Assembly: GCA_040757085.1 (NCBI GenBank)
Contig: JBFLXJ010000033.1
Location: forward strand, 28,751-92,750
Direction: 5' to 3'
DNA: 64,000 bases
DNA from: Bacillota bacterium
Lineage (GTDB): Bacteria > Bacillota > Sulfobacillia > JACIYH01
A program made the position numbers and the translations under genes. This document shows, piece by piece, positions 7,242 through 48,487 of this stretch. Positions within the stretch are counted from its first letter, which is position 1, and each line of letters starts with the position of its first letter. The notes beneath the pieces were generated by a model. The model saw only the letters and a program-made list of their open reading frames with translations. It had not been told where the DNA came from and made no database searches.

Positions 7242-7264
7242 GGTTTACCTCCCATCAGCAAGAA

Positions 7265-7288
7265 GAGAGCCGGGTTGCCCCGGCTCTC
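7265..7288 (-). terminator. terminator-like hairpin (attenuator candidate) 15 nt upstream of the ABC ATPase RBS
   Basis: GAGAGCCGGG-GCAA-CCCGGCTCTC is a perfect 10-bp stem. On the minus strand it is followed by TTCTTGCT and preceded by a TTTTT run. Confidence 0.4.
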
Positions 7289-7382
7289 CTGCAGAAAAAC
7301 GAAGACCCTCCGGCTGGAGCCAGGGCAATGCCCCTCCCGCTCCGGCCAGGGGCCCGGACAGCCTCACCTGGGCCGGGCGGAC

Positions 7383-7418
7383 CTAGATGCTGCCACCTTC
7401 CTCGCGGATTTTGAACAT
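7383..7418 (-). CDS. putative 11-codon leader peptide ORF (MFKIREEGGSI) upstream of the ABC-2 operon
   Basis: My own translation: GGGAGGAGGTG sits 6 nt upstream of an ATG, followed by 11 codons and a TAG. It lies between a sigma-A-like promoter and a terminator-like hairpin. Confidence 0.3.
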   Translation of the reverse strand: MFKIREEGGSI

Positions 7419-7451
7419 GTCCGCACCTCCTCCCGTACACGACCGTACGCG

Positions 7452-7481
7452 AGATTACCACATGCTGCCTACCAGTGTCAA
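7452..7481 (-). promoter_or_regulatory. putative sigma-A promoter (TTGACA-18-TAATCT with a TGg extended -10) for the leader and ABC-2 operon
   Basis: Minus-strand reading gives TTGACA (7481-7476), an 18-nt spacer, then TGGTAATCT (-10 at 7457-7452). It is located in the coaE to ABC intergenic region. Confidence 0.4.
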
Positions 7482-7522
7482 TCCCACCCAGGGCAACCGT
7501 CCCAGCCGCCATTCAGGGCGGC

Positions 7523-8143
7523 TCAGTCGCAGCGGTGGGGATGGGGCGCGTCGCGCGTGGCTTCCTGCCAGCACTGCAGCACCTGGTCGCGGGTCCGGTC
7601 CGGGGAGCCGTCGTTGTGGATGACGCGGTCGGCCAGGCGGACCTTCTCCTCGAGGGGCATCTGGGCCTGCAGGCGTGCTTCCGCCTCTTGCGGGGCAAGA
7701 CCGTTGCGCCTGCACAGGCGTTCGATCTGTTGCTGACGCGAGCAGGTCACCACCCAGACCTCGTCCACCGCGTCGCGCATACCGGCTTCCAGCAGTAAGG
7801 GCGCATCGATGACCAGGACCTCCACGCCCTGCTGGCGGGCCTGTTCCACCATCTCGCGGATGAGGCGGATGATGGAGGGATGGGTGATGGCATCCAGGTC
7901 GGCCCGAGCCTGCCGGTCGTGAAAGATGATATCCGCCAGGCGGGCGCGGTCGAGGGATCCATCGGGACGAAGGATGCCGCGCCCAAACCGCTCCGCCACC
8001 CGGGCCAGCACCGGACTGCCCGGGGCCAGCACCTCGCGCGCCACCTGGTCCGCATCCAGCACGGTGGCGCCCAACTCCCGCAACATGGCTGCCACCGTGC
8101 TCTTTCCACAGGCGATGCCCCCCGTGACTCCTATGACCAGCAG
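7523..8143 (-). CDS. coaE: dephospho-CoA kinase; the start is probably non-canonical (CTG)
   Basis: The P-loop GVTGGIACGKST is encoded in frame at 8130-8096, upstream of the first ATG/GTG at 8095. The in-frame stop TGA sits at 8161-8159. The only possible start codons upstream of the P-loop are CTG at 8143 and 8140, or ATA, with GAGGGGG/GAGGTGG just upstream. Confidence 0.7.
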   Translation of the reverse strand: MLVIGVTGGIACGKSTVAAMLRELGATVLDADQVAREVLAPGSPVLARVAERFGRGILRPDGSLDRARLADIIFHDRQARADLDAITHPSIIRLIREMVEQARQQGVEVLVIDAPLLLEAGMRDAVDEVWVVTCSRQQQIERLCRRNGLAPQEAEARLQAQMPLEEKVRLADRVIHNDGSPDRTRDQVLQCWQEATRDAPHPHRCD

Positions 8144-13560: not shown

Positions 13561-13596
13561 GGAAAATCGAAGGGCCGGGTGAGCCACACCCGGCCC
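13561..13596 (-). terminator. rho-independent terminator after the anti-sigma gene
   Basis: Minus-strand RNA: GGGCCGGGUG-uggcuc-CACCCGGCCC followed by UUCGAUUUUCC. Confidence 0.55.
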
Positions 13597-31874: not shown

Positions 31875-32615
31875 CTAGATCTGGTAACGGCTGCCCTCAC
31901 CCGCAAGTTCCACGGGGAGGCCCGCTTCCCCCACGACTGCCTGGGCTTCTTCCAGCACCTTCGCCCAATCCGCGGTGGGCCAGAGGTGGGTGAGGAGTAA
32001 GCGCTTGGCCCCTGCCCGCCGGCCCAGTTCTCCGGCCTGGCGCCCCGTGAGGTGTCCGGGCGACCGTGGCTCGTCCTCGAGCAGGGTCGCCTCGCACAGC
32101 AAGAGGTCGGCGTCCCGGGCAAATTCCACCAGGGGGTCGTGCCAGGAGGTGTCCCCCGTATATACGAGCTTCCTGCCCCCCTGTTCTATCGACATGGCGT
32201 ATGTAAGCACGGTATGGGGCACGGCCAGGAACCGAAACACCAGCCCTCCCAGGTCAAGCTTCTCGTCGGGGTCGATGGGCCGGGGATCCAGCACCTGCTT
32301 GTAGCGCAGGCGCTCGAACTCTTCCTCGGGCAGGGGCGGGGCGTACAGCGTGAGCGGCCGCGAGCGCGTGCCGTCAGCGACGGCACGCTGAACCGCATAC
32401 CGTAGCACAAGCAAGTCGGACATGTGGTCTCCGTGCAGGTGAGAAAAGACGACGGCTTCCAGGCCGCGGAAGTCGGCGTGGCGGGCCAGGTTGGCCATCA
32501 CCCCGCTGCCGCAGTCCACCAGCACCGAGATCGGACCTGCCTGCACCAGGTACCCCGAACAAGCTCTCCCCGCCGCCGGGTACCCGCCACAAACCCCCAG
32601 TACCGTCAGTCGCAT
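31875..32615 (-). CDS. MBL-fold metallo-hydrolase
   Basis: HLHGDH is the HxHxDH motif. The ATG at 32615 is directly preceded by GGAGGGAGGAGC. Confidence 0.7.
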   Translation of the reverse strand: MRLTVLGVCGGYPAAGRACSGYLVQAGPISVLVDCGSGVMANLARHADFRGLEAVVFSHLHGDHMSDLLVLRYAVQRAVADGTRSRPLTLYAPPLPEEEFERLRYKQVLDPRPIDPDEKLDLGGLVFRFLAVPHTVLTYAMSIEQGGRKLVYTGDTSWHDPLVEFARDADLLLCEATLLEDEPRSPGHLTGRQAGELGRRAGAKRLLLTHLWPTADWAKVLEEAQAVVGEAGLPVELAGEGSRYQI

Positions 32616-34874: not shown

Positions 34875-35891
34875 GTGGTAGCAGGGCTCGTAGCCATCCT
34901 GATTCTGGTCCTGGTACTTCCTTTCGTTTTCCGTCCCGTCGAGCACAACCTGGAGGCGTTTCTCTTTGTGATGGGGGTGGCGGCTACCCTGGTTTCCCGC
35001 ACCCTCAGCGTGCACCTCTTCCTGCACGCGCTCCGCGAACCCCTCATGATCACCGGCGCCGTCCTGGTAGCCGGGCTCCTGTTCCGGTTCCTCCAGAAGC
35101 AGGTGGGGGCCACAGTGGAAGGGGCCGTGCGCAAACTGTCCCTGCCCTTCTTCGGGGCCCTGGTGGTGGTGGCCCTGGGCATGGTGTCCAGCATAATCAC
35201 CGCCATCATCGCTTCCCTGGTACTGGTGGAAATCGTCAACTCCCTGCCCGTCGACAGGCAACGCCGGGTGCCCTTCACCGTGGCCGCCTGCTTTGCCATC
35301 GGCCTGGGGGCTGCGCTCACGCCGGTGGGAGAACCCCTTTCTACCATCGCCACATCCAAAATGGGCCAGGGATTCTGGTACCTGGCCGGGCTGCTGGCAA
35401 AGTTCATAGTGCCGGGGATCCTCGCGCTGGGTGTCCTGTCCGCCTATCTGCTGCGGGGGCGGGCAGTGACGCCCGGGGGTGAGCGGCGGGAAATCCGGGG
35501 TGAAACCGTCCCCGGTGTCATCGTAAGAGCGTTGAAGGTCTACCTGTTCGTGATGGCGCTGGTCCTCTTGGGGGAAGGATTCAAGCCGGTCATCGACATG
35601 TACGTGCTCAAGCTGTCCCCCCAGATCCTGTACTGGATTAACATGGTCTCTGCCGTCTTAGACAACGCTACCCTGACCGCGGCGGAGATCACCCGGGAGA
35701 TGACGGACGCCCAGGTGCGGGCGATCCTGATGGGCCTCCTCATTTCCGGCGGAATGCTCATCCCCGGGAACATCCCCAACATCATCTCGGCGGGGAAGCT
35801 CGGCATCGGCAGCCGCGACTGGGCCCGCACCGGCATCCCCCTCGGCCTGGTGCTGCTCGCGGCCTACTTCGTCATCCTGTTCGTGCTCTAG
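34875..35891 (+). CDS. integral membrane protein, possibly a DUF1646-like predicted cation transporter
   Basis: About 10 hydrophobic helices. GTG start. The family assignment is from memory only. Confidence 0.5.
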   Translation: MVAGLVAILILVLVLPFVFRPVEHNLEAFLFVMGVAATLVSRTLSVHLFLHALREPLMITGAVLVAGLLFRFLQKQVGATVEGAVRKLSLPFFGALVVVALGMVSSIITAIIASLVLVEIVNSLPVDRQRRVPFTVAACFAIGLGAALTPVGEPLSTIATSKMGQGFWYLAGLLAKFIVPGILALGVLSAYLLRGRAVTPGGERREIRGETVPGVIVRALKVYLFVMALVLLGEGFKPVIDMYVLKLSPQILYWINMVSAVLDNATLTAAEITREMTDAQVRAILMGLLISGGMLIPGNIPNIISAGKLGIGSRDWARTGIPLGLVLLAAYFVILFVL

Positions 35892-36083
35892 CGCGGCGGC
35901 CCGGGTGCGATGGTAAAGCAGACCGCCAATGCGGCCCGTCTCCGCAGCACTCAGACCGCCCCATCCGCGCGCCCGTACCTTGTCCCACAGCCCCAACTCC
36001 CTGGCAATGGCCTCCTTGAGGGGAGCCAGGGGATCTTCCTTCCTGACGCTCAAAACCTGCACCACCGCCCGGCCCGGTCCCGC

Positions 36084-37910
36084 TTATTTTGGCCTCCAGC
36101 GCCGTGTCGCTATACCGGCACCACCCCCCGCGGCGGCGGCGAACTGCATGTCATACAGGCGCCGGTACATGCCGCCCCGGGCCAGGAGCTCATCGTGGGT
36201 GCCTGCTTCCACGATGCGGCCCTCGTCCAGCACGTAGATGCGGTCAGCGTCCCGTACGGTGGAAAGCCGGTGGGCAATCACCACCGCTGTGCGGCCCCTG
36301 AGCAGGCGGCGCAGGGCCTCCTGGATCAGGGCCTCCGTGTACGGGTCCACGCTGGAGGTGGCCTCATCCAGCACCAGGATGGCGGGATCGGCCAGCAGGG
36401 CGCGGGCGAAGGCCAGGAGCTGCCGCTGCCCCACGGAAATGCGGGCCCCCCTCTCCCCCACCTCGGTGTCGTAGCCCTGAGGGAGCCGGCGGATGAAGGC
36501 ATCCGCCCCCACCGCTCGCGCGGCTTCTTCCACCTCGTGGTCGCTAGCGGTGGGCCTGCCGTACCGGATGTTTTCCCGGACGGTACCCGAGAAAACGAAG
36601 CTGTCCTGCAGCACCACTCCCATCTGGCGACGCAACGAGGCCAGCGTCACGCGGCGGATGTCATGGCCGTCTATGGTGATGCGCCCCTCCTGGGGGTCGT
36701 AAAAGCGGGCCAGCAGGTTGATCACGGTGGTCTTGCCCGCCCCGGTCGGGCCCACGAGTGCGACGGTTTCTCCCGGCCGCGCCTCCAGGTTGATGCGGTG
36801 CAGCACCTCCTGGCCGGGCTCGTAGGAGAAGCTGACGTCCTCGAACTTCACCTCGCCCCGCACCCTGGGCAGTTCGACCGCGTCCGGGGCCTCCCTCACC
36901 GCGGGTTGGGTGCCCAGGATCTCCAGGATGCGCTCGGTGGAAACCCCTGCGGAGAGGAACACGCTGTAAACCTGGGTGATTTCCCGGATGGGCATGAAAA
37001 ACCGAGCCAGGTAGCTCAGGAAGGCCACCACGGTGCCGAGGGGTACCTCCCCCAGCGAGATGAGGTAACCCCCGTACCAGACCACCACCGCCGACCCCAC
37101 CGCTCCCACCAGTTCCACCGCCGGGTAGAAGGCAGACTCCAGGGCGGCGGCCTGCACGTTGGCCCGCAAGTTGCGAGCGTTGATTTCGTCGAAGCGTTCC
37201 GCATTAACCTCTTCTCTCGAAAAGGCCTGGGTCACCCGCACACCTGATATGGACTCCTGCAGGTTAGCGTTCACATCGGCTATGCGCCGCCTCACGCGGT
37301 GAAAGGCCTGGACCAGCCTCCCTTGGAATCCCCAGGTAAGCAGAAACAGCAGGGGAAGCACCGAGAAGGAGGCCAGGGCCAGGGGCGCGTCGATACGCAG
37401 CATGACGTAGATGATGCCCACGATGCTCACCAGGTCTCCCAGCGTGCTCACCAGGCCGGAGGTGATCAGTTGACTGAGGGCATCCACGTCATTGGTGACC
37501 CGGGACATGACCCGACCCACCTGGGTGCGGTCCCAGAAGTCCGGGCCCAGGCCCAGGAGATGGGCGAACAGGCGCTGGCGCACATCGAACACGACGGTCT
37601 GGCCCACCCGCGACATGATGTACACCTGGGCGTACAGGGCCAGCCACTGGGCCAGGTGAGCAGCCAGGTAGAGCGCGCCGGCGCCCAGCACCCCGCGCAT
37701 ATCCCGGGCCGGGATATAGCGGTCGATGACCAGCTTGACCAGGTAAGGCCCGGGGAGCCCCAGGGCAGCCACCAGGATCACCAGCACCGTGGCTGCCGCC
37801 AGGGACGAAAGGTGCGGCCGCAGCCAGCGCCCCAGTTCCCGGTAGGCACGGCGGCTGACCTGGGAAAGGCGGGCGTCGGCATCCAGGGCATCATGAGGTC
37901 CGAACCACAT
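36084..37910 (-). CDS. ABC exporter, fused transmembrane and ATP-binding subunit (heterodimer partner B)
   Basis: A 6-helix TMD is followed by Walker A GPTGAGKTT, the signature LSVGQRQLL and Walker B LVLDEATSSVD. Confidence 0.8.
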   Translation of the reverse strand: MWFGPHDALDADARLSQVSRRAYRELGRWLRPHLSSLAAATVLVILVAALGLPGPYLVKLVIDRYIPARDMRGVLGAGALYLAAHLAQWLALYAQVYIMSRVGQTVVFDVRQRLFAHLLGLGPDFWDRTQVGRVMSRVTNDVDALSQLITSGLVSTLGDLVSIVGIIYVMLRIDAPLALASFSVLPLLFLLTWGFQGRLVQAFHRVRRRIADVNANLQESISGVRVTQAFSREEVNAERFDEINARNLRANVQAAALESAFYPAVELVGAVGSAVVVWYGGYLISLGEVPLGTVVAFLSYLARFFMPIREITQVYSVFLSAGVSTERILEILGTQPAVREAPDAVELPRVRGEVKFEDVSFSYEPGQEVLHRINLEARPGETVALVGPTGAGKTTVINLLARFYDPQEGRITIDGHDIRRVTLASLRRQMGVVLQDSFVFSGTVRENIRYGRPTASDHEVEEAARAVGADAFIRRLPQGYDTEVGERGARISVGQRQLLAFARALLADPAILVLDEATSSVDPYTEALIQEALRRLLRGRTAVVIAHRLSTVRDADRIYVLDEGRIVEAGTHDELLARGGMYRRLYDMQFAAAAGGGAGIATRRWRPK

Positions 37911-39649
37911 CAGGCCGGCACCCCTTCGGAACCGCCCAGCTGGGTCTCATATATCTTGCGGTAAAGCGGGCACGACCGGAGGAGTTCGTCGTGGCCGCCA
38001 CGGGCCACAATGCGGCCCTCATCGAGAACCACCACCAGGTCGGCAGCGCGCACGGTGGACAGGCGCTGGGCGATGATGAACGAGGTGCGGTCACGCAACA
38101 GCCGGGTGAATTCTTGCTGGATGCGGTACTCGGTCTCGGCGTCCACGCTGGAGGTGGACTCGTCGAAGAGCAGGATGCGGGCATCCATGAGAAGGGCCCG
38201 GGCGATGGCCACCCGTTGCTTCTGACCACCGGACAGTCCCACTCCCCGCTCCCCGATCACCGTGTCGTATCCCCGGGGAAGAGACATGATGAAGTCATGG
38301 ATGTGGGCGGCCCGGGCTGCCCTGATCACCTCGTCCAGCGTGGCCTCGGGGCGCCCGTACGCGATGTTCTCCCGGATGGACGCCGAAAACAGGAAGGTTT
38401 CCTGAGTCACTACTCCGATTTGCCGGCGCAGGCTGTCCAGGGTCATGTCCCGCACATCCACCCCGTCGATGAGCACGCGTCCCTCGTCCACGTCATAAAA
38501 GCGCGGGATCAGGTGGATGAGGCTGCTCTTGCCCGAACCCGTGGGCCCCAGGATCACCACCGTCTGTCCGGGCTGCACCTCCAGATCGACGTGCTCCAGG
38601 GCCCGGAATCCCGAACGGTAACGGAAGGAAACGTTCTCGAAGCGGACGTGGCCGCGGAACGGAGGCATCTTGCGGGCCCCCGGCTTCTCTCTAACCTCGG
38701 CCGGGGTATCCAGCAACTCGAACAAGCGCTGGGCGGCGGCCGTCCCCCGCGAGGCGAGGTTGACCAGGAAGCCCAGTTGCCGGATGGGTATCATGAGCTG
38801 CCCCAGGTACGAGGTGAACGCCACCAGGCCCCCGACGGTGAGCCGGCCCAGCATCACCTCCCGGCCTCCGTATCCGAGCACCAGCGCGGTGCCGGCTGCA
38901 CCCAGGAAGTTCATGTACGGTCCCCAGAATGCCTGCCCGCGCAGGGCCATCATGGTAATCTCCATGTAGCGACGGTTCTGGGCAGTGAACTTCTCCTTCT
39001 CCAGGTCCTCGCGGGCGAAGGATTGCACCACCCTGATGCCGGCCAGGCTCTCCTGCAGGTAGGCGTTCAGCACGGCCACCTGCTGGTGAATCTGGCGCCA
39101 CAGGGGACGCACCCGGCTGCCGAACTGTATCACCGCATGGACCAGGAGGGGGAAGACGGCCATGCATACCAGGGTAAGCCTCCAGTTGAGTCGCAACAGG
39201 ATGCCCAGGGTGACGATCACCTGCAACAGGCTGTTCCCCGTGCCCATGATGCCCATGGCCAGGAAGCGATTGACCGTCTCCACGTCGATGGTGAGCCGGG
39301 ACATGATCTGGCCCGTCTGGGCCTGGTCGTAAAACCCGAAGGAAAGTTGCTGCAGATGCCCGAAGAGCCGGTTGCGGAGATCGTATGTAACCCGCTGGGC
39401 CACGTATTGCATGGAATATCGCTGCAGGAACCTGGCTGCCCCCTGCGCACCCGCCACCGCCACCAGGGCAACGGCGCCCCAGGGAAGCAAGTTCCAACGC
39501 CCCTGCTCCAGGATGGCGTCCACCACCCACATGAGCACCCAGGGGGAAAGGGCGGCCACGGCGGGCACTACCAGGATCATGACCACGCCGCAGGCCAGGA
39601 GATTGCGGTACGGGCGCAAGAACGGTACCAGCCGCCGCAGCCCTCGCAT
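37910..39649 (-). CDS. ABC exporter, fused transmembrane and ATP-binding subunit (heterodimer partner A)
   Basis: A TMD is followed by Walker A GPTGSGKSS, the signature LSGGQKQRVAIARAL and Walker B LLFDESTSSVD. It overlaps partner B by the start/stop codons. Confidence 0.8.
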   Translation of the reverse strand: MRGLRRLVPFLRPYRNLLACGVVMILVVPAVAALSPWVLMWVVDAILEQGRWNLLPWGAVALVAVAGAQGAARFLQRYSMQYVAQRVTYDLRNRLFGHLQQLSFGFYDQAQTGQIMSRLTIDVETVNRFLAMGIMGTGNSLLQVIVTLGILLRLNWRLTLVCMAVFPLLVHAVIQFGSRVRPLWRQIHQQVAVLNAYLQESLAGIRVVQSFAREDLEKEKFTAQNRRYMEITMMALRGQAFWGPYMNFLGAAGTALVLGYGGREVMLGRLTVGGLVAFTSYLGQLMIPIRQLGFLVNLASRGTAAAQRLFELLDTPAEVREKPGARKMPPFRGHVRFENVSFRYRSGFRALEHVDLEVQPGQTVVILGPTGSGKSSLIHLIPRFYDVDEGRVLIDGVDVRDMTLDSLRRQIGVVTQETFLFSASIRENIAYGRPEATLDEVIRAARAAHIHDFIMSLPRGYDTVIGERGVGLSGGQKQRVAIARALLMDARILLFDESTSSVDAETEYRIQQEFTRLLRDRTSFIIAQRLSTVRAADLVVVLDEGRIVARGGHDELLRSCPLYRKIYETQLGGSEGVPA

Positions 39650-39973
39650 CTATTCCCGACCCTCCCGGCCCGGTCGCTCTCCGGGCCCGTCCCCGGTGCG
39701 TTCCCGCCCTCCCGGCTGTTCCGGGCCGGCCGGTTGCTCGAGGACACGCAGGCCCACCGCCCGCAACAGGTCCTGCAAGTACTCGGTGACCAGGTCCGCC
39801 TTGAGCAGGATCAGCCCGTTGCCGTGATGGCTTCCGAAAACCATCACCTTGTCCCCGATCTCCAGGCCCAGTTCCTTGCGCGCCTCGACCGGGATCACCA
39901 CCTGCCCGCGCTCCCCAACGGTGGATGAGCCGTAGAACCTGCCACCCGGCAGGTGCCCGACCTTCTTCCCCAA
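39650..39973 (-). CDS. AbrB/SpoVT-domain DNA-binding protein (putative regulator), first gene of the ABC exporter operon
   Basis: STVGERGQVVIPVEARKELGLEIGDKV is a swapped-hairpin AbrB/MazE-type domain. TTG start with GGTGGTGA upstream. The stop, TAG, abuts the ATG of the ABC gene. Confidence 0.55.
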   Translation of the reverse strand: MGKKVGHLPGGRFYGSSTVGERGQVVIPVEARKELGLEIGDKVMVFGSHHGNGLILLKADLVTEYLQDLLRAVGLRVLEQPAGPEQPGGRERTGDGPGERPGREGRE

Positions 39974-39997
39974 GACAAATCACCACCGGATACGAAA

Positions 39998-40053
39998 AGT
40001 ACGATGGATCATCTCCATCGTACCCATTATACCCGGCAGCAAACGGTAAGTTA
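39998..40053 (-). promoter_or_regulatory. putative sigma-A promoter (TTAACT-17-TATAAT) with a perfect 9-bp inverted-repeat operator just downstream of the -10
   Basis: Minus-strand reading gives TTAACT (40053-40048), a 17-nt spacer, TATAAT (40030-40025), then GTACGATGG-N7-CCATCGTAC (40022-39998). Confidence 0.45.
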
Positions 40054-40063
40054 ACCCCCCAGG

Positions 40064-41497
40064 CTACCGCCGGGAGACCAGGGCCGGGTCCACGTAACCT
40101 ACCGTACCGCTTTGCCCCACCAGCAACAGGCCCTCCTGGCCCGTATCCTCGGGGTCAAAGAAGTACACGGACCGAAGGGGGTCCCCCAGTTCGGGAAAGC
40201 TCAGCCGCCGCACCCTGTAGACACCCGGGCGGAACCAGGCAGCCATCCCCCGTGAAGGGGTCCATTCCACGACCGCCACGTCGTTCCCCTCCGGGTGCAC
40301 GCCCGCCAGGGTACCCGCGGCGGAAGCCACCGCCGTCCCGGGCCGGAAGATGGGTGCCGGCAGCCGCCGCCAGCGCAACTGGCCGTCCCGCCCCTCCCCC
40401 AGATAGGACACCTCTTGCTGCCCCGCTCGCACCGCCAGATACACGGTGAGGCCCCTGTCACCCCGGCACGCCGCCAGGTCCAGCACGTCGGGATGCTCGG
40501 GCGCCAGGTAGGGCCGCCCACCCACCCCCTCGAAACTCAGGCTTCCCTGCTGCCAGGCAAGCAACCACACCTGAACCTCGTAACCGCCCCTCTGCCGCAG
40601 GGCGCCTGCGGCGAGCAGGGTCGTCACCGTGCCACCCCCCGGTACCGGGCACAGGCGGTGCACCTGGGCGGGCAAGCTGAGGGCAGCCGGGTCCCCGTTC
40701 AGCCGCAAGCCCCCCTGGGAATCCACCCACAGGGCCACGGGAGTCTCTTTCCCAGGCAGCAGTACCAGACTGCCCGCCCGGCCGGCGGCGGGCAGCAGGT
40801 TCTCCCCGCCCACGAGCGAACCTCCCACGTAGCGCCACACCCTGCCCGTGGCCGTCACCACCACGGCCTGTCCGGATACCTCGCCCGCATAGGTCAGGGG
40901 TTCGGAAAAGCGGACCTCTTCCATTTCCGGCACTGCGGTCAGGCCCGCCGGCTCCGCCGTCCCCCGCGCCCAGACGGTGTTCCCGTCCTCCTTCGCCAGT
41001 GCGGACCGTGCCTGGGCAGCCGCCGGCGTGCCCAGCACGCGAAGCAGGCGCACGCGGGCAGGCGCTGTTTTGGCGTAGTAACTTGCCTGGGCCTTCCCTT
41101 CCGGCGCCGGGGCCAACCCGGCGCGACCTGCAACAGCCTCATCGCGCACGGACGGTACAGGAGCACGGGCGGTCAGGACCAAGCCTCCCTGGCCCCCGGG
41201 ATCCTCCACCACCGGTGGCACCTGGGCCCGCAGGTCGACCACCACACCCCCCAGCATGACCAGGATTGCGGCTGCAACCGCCGCCACCCGGAGGGCGCGT
41301 ACCACCCGGCGTCGCCCCTCGCGGGCCACAATGGCCGGCACCTGAGCCAGCACGCGGCGCCGCATGGTAACATCGAAAACCAGGTCCGGGGGCACCAGCC
41401 CGTCGGCCCATACCCGCATGTGCTCAAGGAGTTCCTCGCACGAACCCGAGCAGGGGCTCTCAATCTTCCTGAATTCCTGGCCCCGCTCCCCCATCAT
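40064..41497 (-). CDS. anti-sigma factor with a zf-HC2-like N-terminus and a large (~350 aa) extracytoplasmic domain
   Basis: An ATG at 41497 overlaps the sigma stop as ATGA. The N-terminus MMGERGQEFRKIESPCSGSCEELLEH has the H/C signature. One TM segment, ALRVAAVAAAILVMLGGVVV, is present. Confidence 0.55.
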   Translation of the reverse strand: MMGERGQEFRKIESPCSGSCEELLEHMRVWADGLVPPDLVFDVTMRRRVLAQVPAIVAREGRRRVVRALRVAAVAAAILVMLGGVVVDLRAQVPPVVEDPGGQGGLVLTARAPVPSVRDEAVAGRAGLAPAPEGKAQASYYAKTAPARVRLLRVLGTPAAAQARSALAKEDGNTVWARGTAEPAGLTAVPEMEEVRFSEPLTYAGEVSGQAVVVTATGRVWRYVGGSLVGGENLLPAAGRAGSLVLLPGKETPVALWVDSQGGLRLNGDPAALSLPAQVHRLCPVPGGGTVTTLLAAGALRQRGGYEVQVWLLAWQQGSLSFEGVGGRPYLAPEHPDVLDLAACRGDRGLTVYLAVRAGQQEVSYLGEGRDGQLRWRRLPAPIFRPGTAVASAAGTLAGVHPEGNDVAVVEWTPSRGMAAWFRPGVYRVRRLSFPELGDPLRSVYFFDPEDTGQEGLLLVGQSGTVGYVDPALVSRR

Positions 41498-42066
41498 GAG
41501 GTCCAGCCCTCTTTCTCCAGCAGGGTCTTGAGCATCAACCTGGCCCGGTGCAACCGGGATCGTATCGTGGCGGGAACTACCCCCATGGCCCGGGCGATCT
41601 CCACGGTGTCGTAGCCACTCCAGTAGTGCAACATGACCACGTCCCTGTATACGGGCGGCAACCTTCTCACCATGGCAAGCATCCGCTGCTGCTGCACCCG
41701 GCGCCATCCCCCCTCCCCGTCCTCTCCCACGGCAGGAAGGGGATCTGCCAGCAGCATGGTCCGGCCGGCCGTCCGCCGCCGGTCACGACACAGGTTGAGA
41801 CAAATGCGACCCAGCCAGGCCCCCAATTGACATTCTCCCCTGAACTGACCCCCCTTCGCCAGGGCCCGCAGGAACGTTTCCTGGGCCACGTCTTCCGCCT
41901 CGTGACGGTCTCCCAGAGTAAGGTACGCCAGGCGCAGGATATAGTCGCCGTACCGCTGCATAGCCTGCTCCACTGCCCGGGCGGGATCACACCGGTACAC
42001 CCTCAGCCATTCCGCCGCCTCGGGCACCATCTTCCCGCCCGCTCCCGGCGCGCCGTTCCTACTCAT
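41494..42066 (-). CDS. ECF-type RNA polymerase sigma factor
   Basis: Region 2 reads DVAQETFLRALAK. Region 4 reads TVEIARAMGVVPATIRSRLHRARLML. The ATG at 42030 may be the true start if the predicted ECF promoter at 42070-42096 is real. Confidence 0.75.
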   Translation of the reverse strand: MSRNGAPGAGGKMVPEAAEWLRVYRCDPARAVEQAMQRYGDYILRLAYLTLGDRHEAEDVAQETFLRALAKGGQFRGECQLGAWLGRICLNLCRDRRRTAGRTMLLADPLPAVGEDGEGGWRRVQQQRMLAMVRRLPPVYRDVVMLHYWSGYDTVEIARAMGVVPATIRSRLHRARLMLKTLLEKEGWTS

Positions 42067-42358
42067 AATGACGCCTCGCGACGCACTAACGTTGCAGATG
42101 CACCCCAAGCGCAGCAGGGCACCGCTACCCCCTAGCCCGGAATAACAGGGCGCTGCTGCCCAGCCGCCCGGACCTGCCAGCCTAACCAGTTCTTCTCGGG
42201 GGGCCCCGTTTCCTCCGTCGCTGTGCAACGCTTGCCCCAGCCGGCCCGTCTATACATCGGGTGGCAGGCAACCCGGCCTACCGGCAAACGATCCGCCCCG
42301 CAGCCCTGTACCGGTGGCCGCTACCTGCTATCGGACTGCAGGTTCCGGCCTGGCACCC

Positions 42359-42444: not shown

Positions 42445-43884
42445 TCACGAGCGGCCGCGCAAATCGGCCAGGTGGCCACGCAGGTAAAAACGGGGATTGA
42501 GGCTACACCTGACGCCCGAAGCGATACGCCAAATGTGGGGCAGGGACACCCGGCCCGCCATCACGTTCCGCAATAGGATGAACAGGTTGGGGATCAGGTA
42601 CCAACTGCTGCGCACGGCAGTACGGTAAAGCGACGTGAACTCCCGATAAAAATCCTCCAGCTTGAGCCGGGTTGGGATAACGCTGTGGAACAGGTCGTAC
42701 AACTCGTAGTTAGTGGTGATCAGGCGGTCTCTCCACTTGCGGTAAAGCTCGGTTCCCGGCAGGGGAGTCAGCACGGCAATGGAGGGCGCCGAAATCCGGT
42801 ACTTGCGCAGAAACGCACGCAGCTTTTCGAACTGACGGTGGGTGTAATCCGGATCCACGATGAAGGACGGGGTCACGGCTATTCCCAGGCGCCGTAACAC
42901 GTCCAGGGCTCGCACGTTGTTTTCCACCGTATTCTTCTTGTTCAGGACGTGCAGTTCTTCGTCATCCACCTTTTCCATGCCGATGAACACCCGGTACAGC
43001 CCGACTTCCTTCCACAGGCGCAGGAGGTCGGGGTGCTTGACCACCGTGTCGCTCCGGGCCTGGACGGTATAGCGGTGGCGGATGCGGTTACGCTTCAACT
43101 CCTGGGCGATGGCTTCCGCCCGCGGGACGCTCAGCAGGAAGTTGTCATCGGTGATAAGGACATACTCTTCCCGCACCCCATCCAGTTCCTCCGCCACCCG
43201 GGCCGGACTCTTGACCCGGACCGTTCCCCGGTAGAACTTCCAGACCGAGCAAAAGGTGCACCGGTAGGGGCAGCCCCGGGCCGTTTCCACCGAGGCCATG
43301 GGTTTTTGCAGACCCAGGTAGTAGAACCGGCGGTAAGGAGCCGTCAGTTGACGGGCCACCGGAGACAGATCATCCAGGGCCGCCGGGGGCCTTTCGCCCG
43401 TCCACACCTGTCCCGAGGAGGTGTTCAGCACCAGGCCCGATACGTCCCGCAGGCACCCGCCGCGGGCCACCGTGTCCACCAACTCCCGGGCCGTGAGTTC
43501 ACCCTCGCCCACCACCACGGCGTCCACCTCGGTCCCGGAGAAGTCTTCCGGACAAAGGGAGGCGTGGTGCCCGCCCACGAACACGAAGCAATCGGGCCGC
43601 CGTTCCTTCACCCGCCGTGCCACCGCTCTGGTGCGGTAAACGTCCATGGTAAACCCGCAGCTGATCCCGCACAGTTGGGGTTCGAACTCTGCCAGGGCGC
43701 GATCGAGCCACCGCGGCGCCAAAAGGTCCACCAGGTTCACCTCGTGAGGGGGACCCCAGCGCCGGTCAAGGAGGGCCCCGGCCACTGCCTCCAGACCCAG
43801 CGGCTCCACCACCGCAGTACTTCCGAAGCCCACCCCCCCCGCGGGGCGGGGCTGTACCAGCAGGACTCTCGCCACCTGCACCAC
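42445..43884 (-). CDS. B12-binding domain-containing radical SAM protein
   Basis: An N-terminal Rossmann-like B12-binding region is followed by the CxxxCxxC cluster (CPYRCTFC). It lies 29 nt downstream of nrdJ. Confidence 0.75.
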   Translation of the reverse strand: MVQVARVLLVQPRPAGGVGFGSTAVVEPLGLEAVAGALLDRRWGPPHEVNLVDLLAPRWLDRALAEFEPQLCGISCGFTMDVYRTRAVARRVKERRPDCFVFVGGHHASLCPEDFSGTEVDAVVVGEGELTARELVDTVARGGCLRDVSGLVLNTSSGQVWTGERPPAALDDLSPVARQLTAPYRRFYYLGLQKPMASVETARGCPYRCTFCSVWKFYRGTVRVKSPARVAEELDGVREEYVLITDDNFLLSVPRAEAIAQELKRNRIRHRYTVQARSDTVVKHPDLLRLWKEVGLYRVFIGMEKVDDEELHVLNKKNTVENNVRALDVLRRLGIAVTPSFIVDPDYTHRQFEKLRAFLRKYRISAPSIAVLTPLPGTELYRKWRDRLITTNYELYDLFHSVIPTRLKLEDFYREFTSLYRTAVRSSWYLIPNLFILLRNVMAGRVSLPHIWRIASGVRCSLNPRFYLRGHLADLRGRS

Positions 43885-43913: not shown

Positions 43914-46900
43914 TTAGCCGCAACGGGAGAAACCGCAGAAATGGCAGACCAGGCACCCGCTTTCGTGAGTGAGGTGGCCACCGCACTCGGGGCAGGCACC
44001 CATGTGGTTGTCGACGGGATCGAGACTCACTGCCATCTGATCCCAGGAATGCTGGCCGACACTGCCGGGGTTGGGAGAAATGCTCTCCCGGGCCGTATTC
44101 TCTCGGGCCGCAGCCTTCCGTTTCAGATAGCGCTCCAGCACAATGCCGATGGCGTCCGGGCAGGAAAGCACCATTCCACCGCCTTCCACCCAGGCAGGCG
44201 ACGGGCAGCGGATGCCCCGCAATTCCTTCACGACAGACTCCGGCCGGACTCCCGAACGCAACGCCAGCGATATGAGCCGGGCCACCGCCTCGGACTGGGA
44301 TGACGCACAGCCGCCCGACTTGCCCATGGAGGCGAACACCTCGCACAGGCCGTACTCGTCCTCATTGATGGTCACGTACAGGTTCCCGCAGCCCGTCCTT
44401 ATGCGCTCGGTGCTGCCGTGGGTGACCGATGGCCTGGCCCTTGGCGTAATCCCTCCCCGGCCCCCCGCAGGCGCCGCCGCAAGCCGGGGCTCTGCCGCGC
44501 CTTCCCGCACCACCGGGCCGACGGCCGGGCGCTCTTCCGCGCTCTCTCCCCCGGCTCGCACGGGCTCCTCGGGCGCCACACGCACCTGGCCCGGAACACC
44601 GCCCGAAACAGCCTGAGAGCGCCCGAGTTCCGCCTGCCGCGGCAGCTCCCCGGGCGGCTCCTCTCCCTTCCGCACCGTGCCCACGTTCAGCACCTGCTCC
44701 TCCCGACTCCGGTCACGATATATGGTCACGCCCTTGCACCCCAGTTCGTACGCCAGGAAGTAAACCTTCGCCACGTCCTCGCGCGTGGCCTCGTTGCACA
44801 TATTCACCGTCTTGGAGACGGCATTGTCCGTGTGCGTCTGAAAAGCGGCCTGCATGCGGATGTGCCATTCGGGATCGATCTGCAGGGCGGTGACGAACAC
44901 CCGCTGCCACCGCTCGGGGACGCCGGGTAGCCCCCGGACCGAGCCGCGCTCCGCCACCAGCCGCATCAGCTCCGGGCTGTAAAACCCCTCTCTCCTGGCC
45001 ACTTCCTCGAAGATCGGGTTGACTTCGACCAGTTGCTGGCCTTCCAAAACCTTGCGGAAGAAGGCCAGGGCGAACAGGGGCTCGATACCGGAAGAGCAAC
45101 CCGCGATGATGCTGATGGTGCCCGTGGGTGCAATAGTGGTGAGGGTGGCGTTCCGCACGGGAGGACCGTCCCGGAACACGCTGTGGGAGAAATTTGGAAA
45201 CGCCCCCCGTTCCCGTGCCAGCTGGCGAGTTGCCTCCCGTGCCTCGCGGTGGATGAACCCCATCACCTCGTCAGCCAGGCGCAGTGCCTCGGAGGAATCG
45301 TAGGGGATCCCCAGCTTGATGAGCATGTCCGCCCAGCCCATCACGCCCAGGCCGATCTTGCGGTTGCCCCGGGCCATCTTTTCGATTTCGGGCAGGGGGT
45401 ATTTGTTTGCGTCTATGATGTTATCCAGAAAACGGACGCCCAGACGGGTAATCCGGGAAAGCTCATCCCAATCTATCGCCTCCCTGGCGTAGGCCAGCAG
45501 TTCCTCGCCCCTCAAATCCCAAACCCGCAGTTTTTCCCATGACTCCGCGCCCGGCCTCACCGCAAGCGAAAGGTTGATGGACCCCAGGCAGCACGCCTCG
45601 TACGGGAGCAGAGGTTGCTCCCCGCAGTTGTGGGCACATATCCCGTTGGCGTCAAAGGCGTTGACGCCGGGGACCCGCACGTCGTAGACCTCCTCGACAC
45701 CGTCCTCCTTGACCGCCAGGACGGTGGCCACGAACCGCTCGCGGTTCAACGTGCGCCGGCAGGCACGGAGGAGCAATGCGAGCTTCCGCGCCTTGACGCT
45801 ATCGCCAAAGCCAATCCGTTCCGCAAACACGGCCACGTTATCGCCGCTGATGACTAACTCGTGCCGGGTCGTGCCCCTGTACTCTCTGGCCCGTCCTTTG
45901 CCATCCGGCATCAGCCGGGCAGCAGGCGGCCGCCGCTCCTCATGGATGGTGCTCACCATGCCCAGCCTGAGCAGCATGCGCTGGACCAAACGCAAAAGAT
46001 CAAGGCTGCTCTGGGACAGGCGGATGCTCACGCCCTTTTCCTGGCTCCCCTGGACCGAGCCGGCGCAGTCAAAGAGGCCGCGCAGGAAGCCCCGGTAGCC
46101 CTCTGACGAAGCGCGTTCGATCTCCGGGGAAACCGCCTTGGCGCCCGGACGCATCCCCATCCGCCCCGCCAGCACCTCCAAAGCAGCCGAATTGAGGCGG
46201 AAGTCCCCGCAACCGGTGAGCGGTACCCACCCGGTGAAGTCCATGCGGTGCGGCACTGCCTCCGCGCACCCCAGCGCAAGCCGCATGGCCGCGGACGCTC
46301 CCCCATGCGCGGGCGGGCCGTCGACCGCTTCCCACACCGCTCCCCCTCCTGCCGCCACGCCGCCAGACGCTTCCTCCCCGGAGCACACAGCCAGGACAGC
46401 TGCATTTTTCTTGAGCACTCCGTCGCCGGCCAGCAGGCCGAGCAGATAACCCTCACCCTCGCTCAACTCTCCGGTCCAGCCGGGAAGCGACCGATGGTCG
46501 TGCAGGACGATCCGGTCGCCGGGCTTGAGTTCCCCCGCCCTGACCCACTCGCAGCCAATACGGTAGCGCGCACGGTCGACCAAGCGCAGGACCCGATGGT
46601 CGGCGGTGAGCCGGACGCTGTACCCCTCCCGGGTGGATAGCCTCACGACCGGCCTGGTCGCTGTCCTGAAAAAGCCCTCTTTCCCGGTCTTGTAGCACAC
46701 GCCGTTGATAACTGCTTCGAAAGGCCGGCCCACCAGTTCCCGCACCTGGCGCGGGCCTTCACCCGTCATCACCCAGGTATCACCGGTGACACAGGGGTTG
46801 GTGCTCTCGATCTCGCCCAGTTCGGGGGTGGGGTTGTCCCGGTTCAGGCGATCCAGAAAGACGATGCCCGGCTCCCCGTTCCGCCACGCCCCCTCCACGA

Positions 46901-47810
46901 TACGGTCGAAAACATCGCGCGCCCGCAGGCGACCCACTGCCTCCCCGGTACGGGGGTTGACCAGGTCGTACTCACGGTCTTCCCGCACCGCACGCATGAA
47001 CTCTTCCGTAATCCCCACCGAGATGTTGAAGTTGGTGATGTCGGCGTTGTCCTGCTTGCAGGTGATGAACTCCATAATGTCGGGGTGATCCACCCGCAAG
47101 ATACCCATATTCGCTCCGCGACGCGTGCCCCCTTGCTTTATGGCTTCGGTGGCGGCGTTGAATACCCGCATGAAGGACACCGGCCCGGAGGCAACGCCAC
47201 CGGTGGTACGCACCACGTCGTTCTTGGGGCGAAGCCGCGAGAAGCTCATGCCCGTGCCGCCCCCCGATTGGTGGATGAGGGCAGCATGTTTGATACTTTC
47301 AAAAATCCCCACCAGGGAGTCGTCCACGGGCAGGACGAAGCAGGCCGACAACTGGCTCAGTTCCCGCCCCGCATTCATCAGGGTGGGCGAGTTGAACATG
47401 AACCTCTTCTCCGTCATGGCGTCGTACAGCCGATCCTGGAAAGAGCGGATGCCGGCACTTTCTCGCTCCATCACCCTGGCCAGTTCGTCAAAAGGCACCC
47501 TCATGTGCCCGTGCCTGTCCAGCCATATGTAGGCGCGCTGCAACATCTCCCAATCCCAGCGGGTCAGTCCCTCCAGTACTCCCAGCCGCTCCGGCCACCC
47601 CGCCGGCGGAGTCCCCGGTTCGCCATGGGGAGTCTGACCTCCCTCGGGATCATATACCTCAACCAGATACAGACCTTCCACCAGTGCGATGTTCCGTGCT
47701 ACCCGCCGGAACAACTGCTCCGGAGTCTCCACCACCTTCCCGCTGGCATCCTTGGCCAGGTACCGCTTCCGCAACACCACCAGGCCGTTCTCACTCAACT
47801 GCAGTTCTGC
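43914..47810 (-). CDS. nrdJ: adenosylcobalamin-dependent (class II) ribonucleoside-diphosphate reductase, interrupted by an intein and carrying a C-terminal zinc-finger tail
   Basis: The N-terminus reads ENGLVVLRKRYLAKD. The catalytic region is FNSPTLMNAGRELSQLSACFVLPV. The catalytic loop STNP/CGEQPLLPYEACCLGSINLS is split by ~389 aa. The C-terminus has CPECGG...CLVCHFCGFSRCG. I prefer the GTG at 47810, 5 nt after GGGAGGGGAG. Confidence 0.85.
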   Translation of the reverse strand, partial: AELQLSENGLVVLRKRYLAKDASGKVVETPEQLFRRVARNIALVEGLYLVEVYDPEGGQTPHGEPGTPPAGWPERLGVLEGLTRWDWEMLQRAYIWLDRHGHMRVPFDELARVMERESAGIRSFQDRLYDAMTEKRFMFNSPTLMNAGRELSQLSACFVLPVDDSLVGIFESIKHAALIHQSGGGTGMSFSRLRPKNDVVRTTGGVASGPVSFMRVFNAATEAIKQGGTRRGANMGILRVDHPDIMEFITCKQDNADITNFNISVGITEEFMRAVREDREYDLVNPRTGEAVGRLRARDVFDRIVEGAWRNGEPGIVFLDRLNRDNPTPELGEIESTNPCVTGDTWVMTGEGPRQVRELVGRPFEAVINGVCYKTGKEGFFRTATRPVVRLSTREGYSVRLTADHRVLRLVDRARYRIGCEWVRAGELKPGDRIVLHDHRSLPGWTGELSEGEGYLLGLLAGDGVLKKNAAVLAVCSGEEASGGVAAGGGAVWEAVDGPPAHGGASAAMRLALGCAEAVPHRMDFTGWVPLTGCGDFRLNSAALEVLAGRMGMRPGAKAVSPEIERASSEGYRGFLRGLFDCAGSVQGSQEKGVSIRLSQSSLDLLRLVQRMLLRLGMVSTIHEERRPPAARLMPDGKGRAREYRGTTRHELVISGDNVAVFAERIGFGDSVKARKLALLLRACRRTLNRERFVATVLAVKEDGVEEVYDVRVPGVNAFDANGICAHNCGEQPLLPYEACCLGSINLSLAVRPGAESWEKLRVWDLRGEELLAYAREAIDWDELSRITRLGVRFLDNIIDANKYPLPEIEKMARGNRKIGLGVMGWADMLIKLGIPYDSSEALRLADEVMGFIHREAREATRQLARERGAFPNFSHSVFRDGPPVRNATLTTIAPTGTISIIAGCSSGIEPLFALAFFRKVLEGQQLVEVNPIFEEVARREGFYSPELMRLVAERGSVRGLPGVPERWQRVFVTALQIDPEWHIRMQAAFQTHTDNAVSKTVNMCNEATREDVAKVYFLAYELGCKGVTIYRDRSREEQVLNVGTVRKGEEPPGELPRQAELGRSQAVSGGVPGQVRVAPEEPVRAGGESAEERPAVGPVVREGAAEPRLAAAPAGGRGGITPRARPSVTHGSTERIRTGCGNLYVTINEDEYGLCEVFASMGKSGGCASSQSEAVARLISLALRSGVRPESVVKELRGIRCPSPAWVEGGGMVLSCPDAIGIVLERYLKRKAAARENTARESISPNPGSVGQHSWDQMAVSLDPVDNHMGACPECGGHLTHESGCLVCHFCGFSRCG
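45627..46793 (-). mobile_element. intein (~389 aa) with a LAGLIDADG homing-endonuclease domain, inserted at the catalytic cysteine codon of nrdJ
   Basis: The insert starts with CVTGDTWV and contains LTADHRV (a TxxH-like block). Two LAGLIDADG-like blocks are present, LLGLLAGDGVL and GFLRGLFDCAGSV. It ends VYDVRVPGVNAFDANGICAHN, directly before a Cys. The flanks rejoin as the canonical STNPCGEQPLL. Confidence 0.8.
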
Positions 47811-47875
47811 CACTTCATCTCCCCTCCCCGTCCGGGCCCAACTCGCCTGCCTCATCCACCCCCTTCTTCCGCACC

Positions 47876-48487
47876 CTACCCCCCGCCCGCGCCACGCCCG
47901 CAATCGCCACTGCCGGGCCCCCCGCCGTGCGCGCTGGCCCCGCTGCCGCCGCCCCCACTCCCGCCGCCGCTGCCGTGGACCCCGCTGCCGTGGCTCCCGC
48001 TGCCCCCAAGACCGGGCGCTTCCTGTCCGCACTCGCGCTCCCGCAGCAGGCGCTGCACCTCCTCGGCAAACCGCCTAAGGTCGGCAAACTGCCGGTACAC
48101 GGAGGCAAAACGCACATAGGCCACCTCGTCCAGCTCCCGCAGGTGCTCCATCACCATCTCGCCGATGACCCTTGACTCCACCTCCCGCTCCCCCCGGGAG
48201 CGTAATTCCTTCTCGATATCCTGGACCACCGCATGCAGGCGCTCCGAAGGCACCGGGCGCTTCTCACACGCCTTCAGCAAACCGGCCAGGATTTTGCCGG
48301 AGTCGAAGCGTTCCCGGCGTCCATCCTTCTTGACCACCACCAGGGGGGGCTCGTCCACCTTCTCGTAAGTCGTGAAGCGGCGGTGGCAATCCTCACACTC
48401 CCGCCGCCTCCGGATGACGGTCCCGTCCTCGGTGGGGCGAGAGTCCAGAACCCTGCTCTCGGGAAACCCGCAGTACGGACACTTCAC
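47876..48487 (-). CDS. nrdR: transcriptional repressor NrdR with a ~50-aa Gly/Ser-rich C-terminal tail
   Basis: A GTG at 48487 gives the canonical N-terminus MKCPYCG...SRVLDSR (zinc ribbon) followed by an ATP-cone. The tail reads [36 protein letters not shown]. Confidence 0.8.

Follow-up and report, generated by a model that had tools for sequence, protein, structure and literature searches.

The window considered here, a stretch of 64,000 nucleotides from a Bacillota bacterium (contig JBFLXJ010000033.1 of assembly GCA_040757085.1), contains a compact cluster of three genes in which a small regulator gene of the AbrB/MazE fold stands directly ahead of two genes for half-size ATP-binding cassette (ABC) exporters, behind a promoter-like region with a perfect palindrome. 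The whole feature lies on the minus strand. The regulator gene (39650-39973) encodes a protein of 107 amino acids (aa), read from a TTG start codon (39973-39971), 6 nt behind the ribosome-binding site GGTGGTGA (39987-39980), to a TAG stop codon (39652-39650). This stop codon directly abuts the ATG of the first half-transporter gene, hereafter ABC1 (37910-39649, 579 aa), with 0 nt in between, and a single base is common to the stop codon of ABC1 and the ATG of the second half-transporter gene, ABC2 (36084-37910, 608 aa). Both the regulator open reading frame (ORF) ahead of the exporter pair and the tight stop-to-start junctions had been noticed in a preliminary description of this DNA, which left the strand unstated, and both are present.

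The TTG codon is the sole in-frame start upstream of an internal GTG in the regulator ORF, and it is kept in the closest clade of relatives and in most of the Bacillota orthologues. A public call for a near-identical protein (P0001, 99% identity) comprises 83 aa only and begins at the internal GTG (residue 25), a start which would deprive the conserved domain of its first third and thereby of the invariant residues G15, G23 and Q24; the automated annotation of this protein has missed the conserved TTG start. Compared over 70 codons in four clade members, the window regulator and its 81-90% identical relatives differ by 19-32 synonymous against 1-6 non-synonymous codon changes. Since the differences are mostly synonymous, the comparison indicates a real ORF, translated and constrained by strong purifying selection, and the possibility, considered in the preliminary description, that the ORF would prove unconserved does not apply.

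Fold and identity of the regulator

Two domain models place the regulator in the swapped-hairpin superfamily above their curated cutoffs, namely Pfam MazE_antitoxin PF04014 (35 bits, cutoff 24.7) and, from NCBIfam, the AbrB domain TIGR01439 (35.7 bits, cutoff 28.3). The AlphaFold2 (AF2) model of the monomer comprises the strands 13-18, 42-47 and 54-58, the helices 29-35 and 59-79 and a disordered tail, with a predicted local distance difference test score (pLDDT) of 82-91 over the AbrB-type domain. Residues 12-58 correspond to the swapped-hairpin-type domain, residues 59-79 to the C-terminal helix, and residues 83-107 to the disordered and non-conserved tail. A profile of the family retrieves from the PDB the N-domain of AbrB, SpoVT and an AbrB-like protein from Pyrococcus, the similarity to the AbrB N-domain reaching an E-value of about 1e-3 only. 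The columns G15, G23, Q24, I27, P28, A31, R32 and K33 are invariant in the family alignment (A3), G20 and R22 are nearly so, and the window protein carries every invariant column. The family can be summarized as proteins of 80-110 aa with a C-terminal helix after the motif G-x(4)-G-x-R-G-Q-x-x-I-P-x-x-A-R-K, a description which also fits the window protein; the conserved G-x-R-G-Q and I-P-x-x-A-R-K residues are all located in the N-terminal part of the AbrB-type domain.

A resemblance to type II antitoxins follows the family in the databases. The best Pfam model is itself named after MazE, weak NCBIfam matches to MazE and PrlF occur, some public annotations label homologues as PrlF antitoxin, and antitoxins typically end in a disordered C-terminal tail. 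That the window protein is a type II antitoxin of the MazE, VapB or PrlF type, orphaned or decayed, which would stand beside the pump by accident and regulate only itself, is nevertheless extremely unlikely: the NCBIfam antitoxin equivalogs score far below their cutoffs (MazE_Deino 19.5 against 65, PrlF 18 against 125), no toxin gene is present, the next genes are ABC exporters that follow without any intergenic gap, and the adjacency to efflux genes recurs in most loci of the family, as detailed below. A toxin-antitoxin module was rejected for this locus, the neighbours being the ABC exporters downstream and, upstream, a 547-aa protein that matches no Pfam model. Among named NCBIfam models HgcC (NF040962) comes closest, with a match over 57 of the 70 model positions (9-65) and an E-value of 2.3e-8; an identity as HgcC was also rejected, the score of 33.7 bits being half of the cutoff of 70, and no match to HgcA or HgcB occurring among the genes examined on either side.

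The heterodimeric ABC exporter

Both ABC1 and ABC2 consist of a transmembrane domain (TMD) linked to a nucleotide-binding domain (NBD), recognized as PF00664 plus PF00005 (ABC_membrane plus ABC_tran). ABC1 possesses a canonical LSGGQ signature and an H-loop in which His is replaced by Gln (FIIAQRL); ABC2 exhibits a degenerate signature, ISVGQ, and a canonical H-loop His. These deviations are not peculiar to the window, the H-loop Gln of ABC1 being kept in all ten orthologues scanned and the SVGQ signature of ABC2 in each of the 7 in which it was read. Both proteins keep the Walker-B Glu. Judged from these motifs, one ATP site of the ABC1-ABC2 pair would be non-consensus, as is the case in heterodimeric exporters, and the pair displays the hallmarks of a heterodimeric type-IV ABC exporter, i.e., adjacent and co-oriented TMD-NBD genes with complementary non-consensus motifs.

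Neither protein reaches an NCBIfam equivalog cutoff. Among bacterial structures in the PDB, ABC2 matches best TmrA (5mkk, 477 bits) and TM288 (3qf4_B, 462 bits) and also matches BmrD (7m33_D, 372 bits), and the best match of ABC1 is the homodimeric Sav1866 (2hyd, 412 bits), slightly ahead of TmrA (399 bits) and of TM288. The window pair shares with TmrAB, TM287/288 and BmrCD two adjacent genes for TMD-NBD half-transporters and asymmetric ATP sites, but its degenerate site is only partly degenerate, the Walker-B Glu being retained in both halves. The preliminary description had thought of a peptide- or toxin-related export module. This part of it finds no support, since neither a toxin gene nor a peptidase domain or precursor gene is present and the other classes of pumps linked with the family suggest general efflux; a module for the export of a bacteriocin or peptide was likewise rejected, no peptidase domain, precursor or immunity gene being seen.

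Conserved synteny and distribution of the family

The comparison covered 80 loci obtained by scanning a genome collection with the regulator profile, 80 loci from a metagenome scan, and five loci from exact-protein look-ups. The metagenome scan, which was queried with the single window protein and retrieved no relative above 59% identity, served as an independent replication set for the promoter motif. The checking of neighbourhood conservation for the AbrB-type gene and the ABC pair, as proposed at the outset, gave a uniform picture in the Bacillota: an ABC1 orthologue is the very next gene, 11-35 nt past the regulator, in each of the 12 relatives with readable downstream DNA (L001, L003-L013; 46-61% identity), and ABC2 is also present in all ten whose contig is long enough, with an ABC1/ABC2 overlap of 1-4 nt.

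Over the family as a whole, 107 of the 131 non-redundant loci have a gene for an efflux component in the next position, comprising 72 HlyD-type adaptors, 26 ABC ATPases (12 type-IV exporters and 14 of the DrrA type), 7 proteins of the resistance-nodulation-division (RND) family, 1 outer-membrane efflux protein (OEP) and 1 transporter of the major facilitator superfamily (MFS). Distant homologues are also first in line in Dehalococcoidia, other Chloroflexota, Armatimonadota and Patescibacteria. Depending on the locus, the genes downstream encode an RND pump (ACR_tran), an OEP with HlyD, an MFS transporter, a HlyD adaptor with a 221-aa ABC ATPase and a MacB/FtsX permease, or two DrrA-type ATPases with an ABC-2 permease, the DrrA/ABC-2 arrangement being found also in a locus of Thermoplasmata (L068). 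The exceptions to this linkage fall in two groups. In two metagenome-assembled genomes of Propionibacteriaceae (L043 and L057, ~6290-7940) the next gene encodes an atypical kinase of the ABC1/UbiB type, with no pump. In Bathyarchaeia and related archaea (L066, L067, L071, L074-L079 and L081, ~6230-6800) it encodes, 0-33 nt away, a small protein of 158-182 aa with no significant Pfam match. The AbrB-like gene is all that these loci have in common, and the window regulator conforms to the family in being the first cistron directly upstream of efflux pump genes. The family comprises at least 3,659 clusters (90% identity, E <= 1e-8), and among the best 120 of these every given name is either generic or an antitoxin label.

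Promoter and palindrome in the window

A promoter scan detected, on the minus strand, a weak -35-like hexamer, TTAACT (40049-40054), separated by 17 nt from a -10 hexamer, TATAAT (40026-40031). This promoter, already pointed out in the preliminary description, is the sole promoter-like match in 7 kb, where 0.8 are expected by chance, and is not significant by itself. The palindrome GTACGATGGA-gatga-TCCATCGTAC (39999-40023, about -5 to +20), which may represent the core operator, begins 2 nt (GG) past the -10 hexamer and is followed by a leader of 26 nt which runs to the TTG and includes GGTGGTGA. It had been reported as a perfect inverted repeat immediately after the -10; the position and the perfection are correct, and the repeat is slightly larger than described, the spacer between the 10-nt arms measuring 5 nt instead of 7. 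No second copy of the 25-mer occurs in the window, even if 3 mismatches are tolerated (0 expected). Such repeats as a class are not rare, however: the window has 5 that are perfect, with arms of 10 nt or more and gaps of up to 10 nt, against 0-4 in Markov simulations. The four others (7265-7288, 13572-13596, 32366-32388 and 51676-51697) are GC-rich and may be stems of terminators or attenuators.

Three metagenomic relatives whose regulators are 81-90% identical to that of the window (L083-L085) form the close clade for the promoter comparison and are the only ones available for covariation of the palindrome. The TATAAT hexamer is invariant in the window and in these relatives, the palindrome arms, leader, ribosome-binding site and TTG are nearly invariant (GGTGGTG being constant in the ribosome-binding site, with A or G as the eighth base), and the DNA upstream of the -10 is unalignable, the -35 element keeping only its leading TT at 17-18 nt from the -10. 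Position 10 of the arms covaries, with GGA/TCC in the window and GGG/CCC in L083 and L084. The non-coding stretch from the -10 to the TTG is better conserved than synonymous sites. It is by its position and its conservation among relatives, and not as a repeat or promoter match alone, that the palindrome exceeds chance.

A phased hexamer array at the promoters of the family

In the Bacillota orthologues an extended -10 is directly followed by another palindrome, GTATGA-N4-TCATAC. In 44 of 82 loci a copy with no more than one mismatch lies in the 250 nt upstream of the regulator gene, and 0 copies occur in the other 777 kb of these loci, a result replicated in the metagenome set (47 of 79 loci upstream, 0 matches in 312 kb). 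A third hexamer often flanks this 16-mer in a 9-bp phase, e.g., GTATGA-n3-GTATGA-n4-TCATAC in Patescibacteria (L059, L080) and GTATGA-n4-TCATAC-n3-TCATAC in RND-linked loci and in L016 and L030. Loci devoid of the 16-mer still possess phased hexamers, such as three TCATAC-type repeats 9 bp apart across the promoter of an MFS locus from Saccharibacteria, GTAAGA-N13-TCTTAC in L053, and, in Bathyarchaeia, TCATAT-n2-GT(A/G)TGA-n3-GTAGGA-n3-GTGTG(A/T) directly past a TTAAAT TATA-like box. The phased hexamers of the Propionibacteriaceae are of the GCATGA (L043) and GTATGA (L057) types. Taken as a direct pair at 9 or 18 bp or an inverted pair at 10, 19 or 28 bp, phased hexamers were detected in 123 of 153 unique upstream regions, compared with 6 of 757 control segments, and the hexamer density amounts to 3.7 per 150 nt against 0.9 in controls. 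At 64 of the 114 unique sites, the spacer from a TTGAC -35 to a -10 fused with the right hexamer (TCATACAAT) is filled by the motif, a repressor position in DNA that is not transcribed. By eye, the G-E-R-G-Q, G-P-R-G-Q and G-A-R-G-Q variants of the protein show no clean correlation with the GTATGA, GTAAGA and GTAGGA variants of the hexamer, and a literature search with the hexamer strings matched only primer sequences.

The window locus is a divergent member of this family. Read on the gene strand (39990-40032), its promoter region displays GTATAA-n3-GTACGA-n3-AGATGA-n4-TCGTAC-n3-TCGTAT, i.e., five hexamers (40032-40027, 40023-40018, 40014-40009, 40004-39999 and 39995-39990) in a 9/9/10/9-bp phase from the -10 to about +30; the -10 with its preceding G makes up the fifth hexamer, GTATAA, in a 9-bp phase with the others. 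The palindrome corresponds to the GTACGA/TCGTAC pair, 19 bp apart, plus symmetric TGG/CCA flanks, and the same spacing of the outer pair occurs in L016 (GTATGA-N13-TCATAC) and L053. Compared with the family hexamer, GTACGA, TCGTAC and GTATAA match at 5/6 positions each, AGATGA and TCGTAT at 4/6. The window palindrome is a GC-shifted version of the family array: the T-to-C and A-to-G changes are consistent with the roughly 66% GC of the genome, and L085, where the left arm is GTATGA and the region reads GTATGA-tgg-GTAGGA-ctca-TCGTAC, links the high-GC clade to the consensus hexamer. In this respect, the palindromic operator of the preliminary description stands as a family-specific element located at the promoter, but an array of phased GTAYGA-type hexamers describes it better than one palindrome does.

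A second conserved element, TTTCGTGTCACGATATACTTG, was observed in L001 and L003-L012, where it ends in the -35 at about 20-40 nt upstream of the -10 (~5885-5910 in L003). It includes the small palindrome TCGTG-t-CACGA, is absent from the window and its close clade, and may be the site of a second regulator.

The location of the array also bears on whether the palindrome acts as DNA at all. In the window it lies at or past the predicted start site, a 6-bp hairpin is possible in the leader, the compensatory change in the arms of the relatives would preserve a hairpin as well as an operator, and leader-based control is known for heterodimeric ABC exporters, the small ORF then corresponding to the leader of bmrBCD or patAB. 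Control of stability or attenuation by a hairpin in the 5' leader is however scarcely credible here. The leader folds no better than shuffled sequence (z = 0.30), an Rfam scan of the whole window yields two tRNAs only and nothing at the locus, the arms are conserved across the family in sequence and not by covariation, and the motif lies in most loci between the -35 and the -10, in an untranscribed spacer, which rules out an RNA-level role for the family. The ORF, moreover, encodes a conserved folded domain under purifying selection and no leader peptide. Attenuation of the bmrBCD type was accordingly rejected on the conserved domain, the 0-nt gap between the ORF and ABC1, the lack of any terminator predicted there, and the z value.

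The same topology bears on the sign of the regulation. The -35 elements of the window clade are poor (TTAACT, TTCCGC, TTCGCC), as is common at activator-dependent promoters, and the hexamers reach upstream into the -10, two observations which would suit a protein that binds the array as an activator or dual regulator. Such a role is very unlikely, taking into account that the window sites cover the -10 to about +30, that the 64 family sites mentioned above fill the spacer between the -35 and the -10, either location occluding RNA polymerase, and that no sites occur upstream of the -35 in the window.

Another question is whether the AbrB-like protein is the factor that reads the array. In Bacillus subtilis, AbrB, which is global and unlinked, represses bmrBCD, a heterodimeric ABC multidrug exporter operon that begins with a small ORF (PMC4191407), and the array could by analogy be the operator of a different, unlinked transcription factor, the AbrB-like protein serving, e.g., as a pump accessory or chaperone. 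The second palindrome beside the -35 of the Bacillota relatives shows that other factors may act at these promoters, and the link of the AbrB-like protein with the array comes from the comparison of sequences. The motif tracks the AbrB-like gene, however, over Bacillota, Dehalococcoidia, Patescibacteria, Armatimonadota and archaea and over six unrelated pump architectures, no other gene is common to the motif-bearing loci, and the invariant residues of the protein fall in the N-terminal part of its AbrB-type domain. Control by an unlinked factor is for these reasons regarded as unlikely.

Proposed mechanism

The 107-aa protein quite probably binds the array and represses its own operon, which comprises the regulator and the efflux pump. 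In more general terms, AbrB-fold proteins of about 80-110 aa that are the first cistrons of efflux operons of any class appear to share one hexamer code. The fold family, the synteny and the occurrence of an operator-like array specific to the family promoters, inside the core promoters, come from sequence and comparison; binding to the array, repression and inducibility are inferred. The suggestion that an AbrB/MazE-like first cistron autoregulates the exporter operon is supported by the synteny, the selection on the ORF and the family-specific array, and the regulator, by its fold (PF04014, TIGR01439), sets the locus apart from standard TetR/MarR-controlled efflux, as had been anticipated.

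In this scheme, the regulator would bind the phased GTAYGA-type hexamers as a dimer or a dimer of dimers, the 25-bp palindrome being the core of the array. Each swapped-hairpin dimer may read one or two hexamers, and the C-terminal helix (59-79) may link the dimers. Owing to the overlap of the array with the -10 and the transcription start, its occupancy would block RNA polymerase and hold down the three-gene operon of the regulator and the heterodimeric type-IV exporter with its one degenerate ATP site; the regulator being the first cistron, it would thereby limit its own synthesis as well as that of the pump (negative autoregulation). With the weak TTG as start codon and TAG|ATG as junction, the output of the regulator would be kept low and coupled to the translation of the pump. 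Relief of repression could occur in two ways, either by direct binding of pump substrates at the oligomer interface or by an antitoxin-like instability of the repressor, which would suit any class of pump.

Several points weigh against this scheme. Taken alone, neither the 10/12 promoter match nor the perfect 10-nt inverted repeat goes beyond chance expectation for the window. No exact GTATGA-N4-TCATAC occurs in the window and the central hexamer is degenerate (AGATGA), so the homology of the window operator with that of the family would depend on the architecture and the 5/6 matches. Foldseek comparison of the AF2 monomer with the PDB yielded no significant match, AbrB-N, Sso7c4 and MazE being among the top hits with E > 0.1 throughout; the fold exists only as an intertwined dimer, which makes a search with the monomer uninformative. 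The regulator has no recognisable ligand-binding domain that could account for a relief of repression. Read-through from the genes of an extracytoplasmic function (ECF) sigma factor and a putative anti-sigma factor located upstream could bypass the operon promoter, no terminator being predicted between these genes and the efflux operon and the stop codon of the putative anti-sigma gene lying 10 nt from the -35. Finally, no experiment on any member of the family was found in the literature, nor any description of an AbrB-type dedicated efflux regulator, an absence which is no proof since the literature coverage was incomplete.

The second route of relief can be extended to a domesticated antitoxin, i.e., an autorepressor that is independent of any ligand, weakly translated (TTG) and labile to proteolysis, and that carries a disordered tail, an idea regarded as rather unlikely though worth keeping in mind. 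The steady-state level of the repressor would then report the capacity for translation or proteostasis, and inhibition of translation, or proteases activated by toxic compounds, would lead to decay of the repressor and derepression of the pump operon. Such a device would explain why a single small protein devoid of a pocket and a single DNA code serve ABC, RND, MacAB, ABC-2 and MFS pumps, why the family is spread over phyla as distant as Bacillota and Patescibacteria, and why the relatives of Bathyarchaeia stand behind the same hexamers ahead of the gene for the 158-182-aa protein.

Neighbouring genes

The ECF-type sigma factor gene (41494-42228, minus strand) overlaps the gene of the 547-aa protein (40064-41707, minus strand) that precedes the efflux operon and is taken as a putative anti-sigma factor. 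Further upstream, on the same strand, a B12-binding radical SAM enzyme gene (42445-43884) separates the sigma factor gene from that of a ribonucleotide reductase (43914-48032; barrel and TSCPD domains) split by an intein with a LAGLIDADG homing-endonuclease domain. The ORF called for this reductase has an odd Arg-rich N-terminal extension and its start is probably over-extended. On the other side, about 20 nt downstream of ABC2, the start of an ORF (35658-36065, minus strand) weakly resembles small acid-soluble spore proteins (SASP) of the alpha/beta type (PF00269, 18 bits against a cutoff of 22); this segment, if real, hints at a spore-forming Bacillota host.

Comparison with known regulators and significance

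MraZ reads several short promoter repeats in helical phase, with no single long palindrome, and recognises direct repeats of the GTGGG type. Like the window regulator, it is a DNA binder of the swapped-hairpin family whose gene comes first in the operon that it regulates (PMC12957436). MraZ however possesses two fused domains, forms large rings and controls cell-division genes, whereas the window protein consists of one domain plus a helix and is linked to an efflux pump; the hexamer of the window family, GTATGA, arranged in direct or inverted repeats at 9-10 bp, also differs from the repeats of MraZ. The type II antitoxins of the AbrB fold (MazE, VapB and PrlF) resemble the window protein in being small products of a first cistron, in which a swapped-hairpin DNA-binding domain at the N-terminus is combined with a flexible C-terminus; they autorepress via palindromic operators at their promoter. 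They possess a toxin partner, in contrast to the window regulator, whose downstream genes encode transporters. HgcC is a small single-domain AbrB-like protein of similar length, but its hgcAB neighbours find no counterpart among the genes examined here, and a literature search on HgcC gave nothing but unrelated acronyms. The AbrB of B. subtilis is an unlinked global transition-state regulator of loose specificity, whereas the window regulator is local and associated with a defined hexamer array; in the bmrBCD operon the small first ORF, bmrB, is an attenuation leader peptide, whereas in the window the AbrB-fold protein itself occupies this place.

Local control of efflux pumps is textbook knowledge for TetR, MarR, MerR and two-component regulators. 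The window locus follows the logic of TetR, QacR, AcrR and MarR in the association of a small regulator gene beside the pump with a palindromic operator over the promoter. Regulators of the TetR/MarR/MerR type are, however, helix-turn-helix proteins encoded by a divergent gene, whereas the window family consists of β-sheet swapped-hairpin proteins with no recognisable ligand pocket, encoded by a co-transcribed first cistron and sharing one code for ABC, RND, MacAB, ABC-2 and MFS pumps. What is new is the AbrB fold; the locally repressed efflux operon is already known.

The annotation of the family can be corrected in that public calls truncate the ORF at the internal GTG or name homologues as PrlF or MazE antitoxins. 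The mechanistic question raised by the family is how a protein that measures about 90 aa and lacks a ligand-binding domain senses the need for efflux. The operator code, consisting of GTATGA hexamers in a 9-10-bp phase, seems unusually portable and predictable and may permit the prediction of regulons from metagenomes, and the repressor-operator pair, if confirmed, would offer a compact tool for synthetic biology. Should the proposed mechanism hold true, these proteins would represent a class of regulators for pumps of every mechanistic type in lineages that have received little study, namely in Dehalococcoidia, in Patescibacteria (the candidate phyla radiation, CPR) and in thermophilic and high-GC Bacillota.

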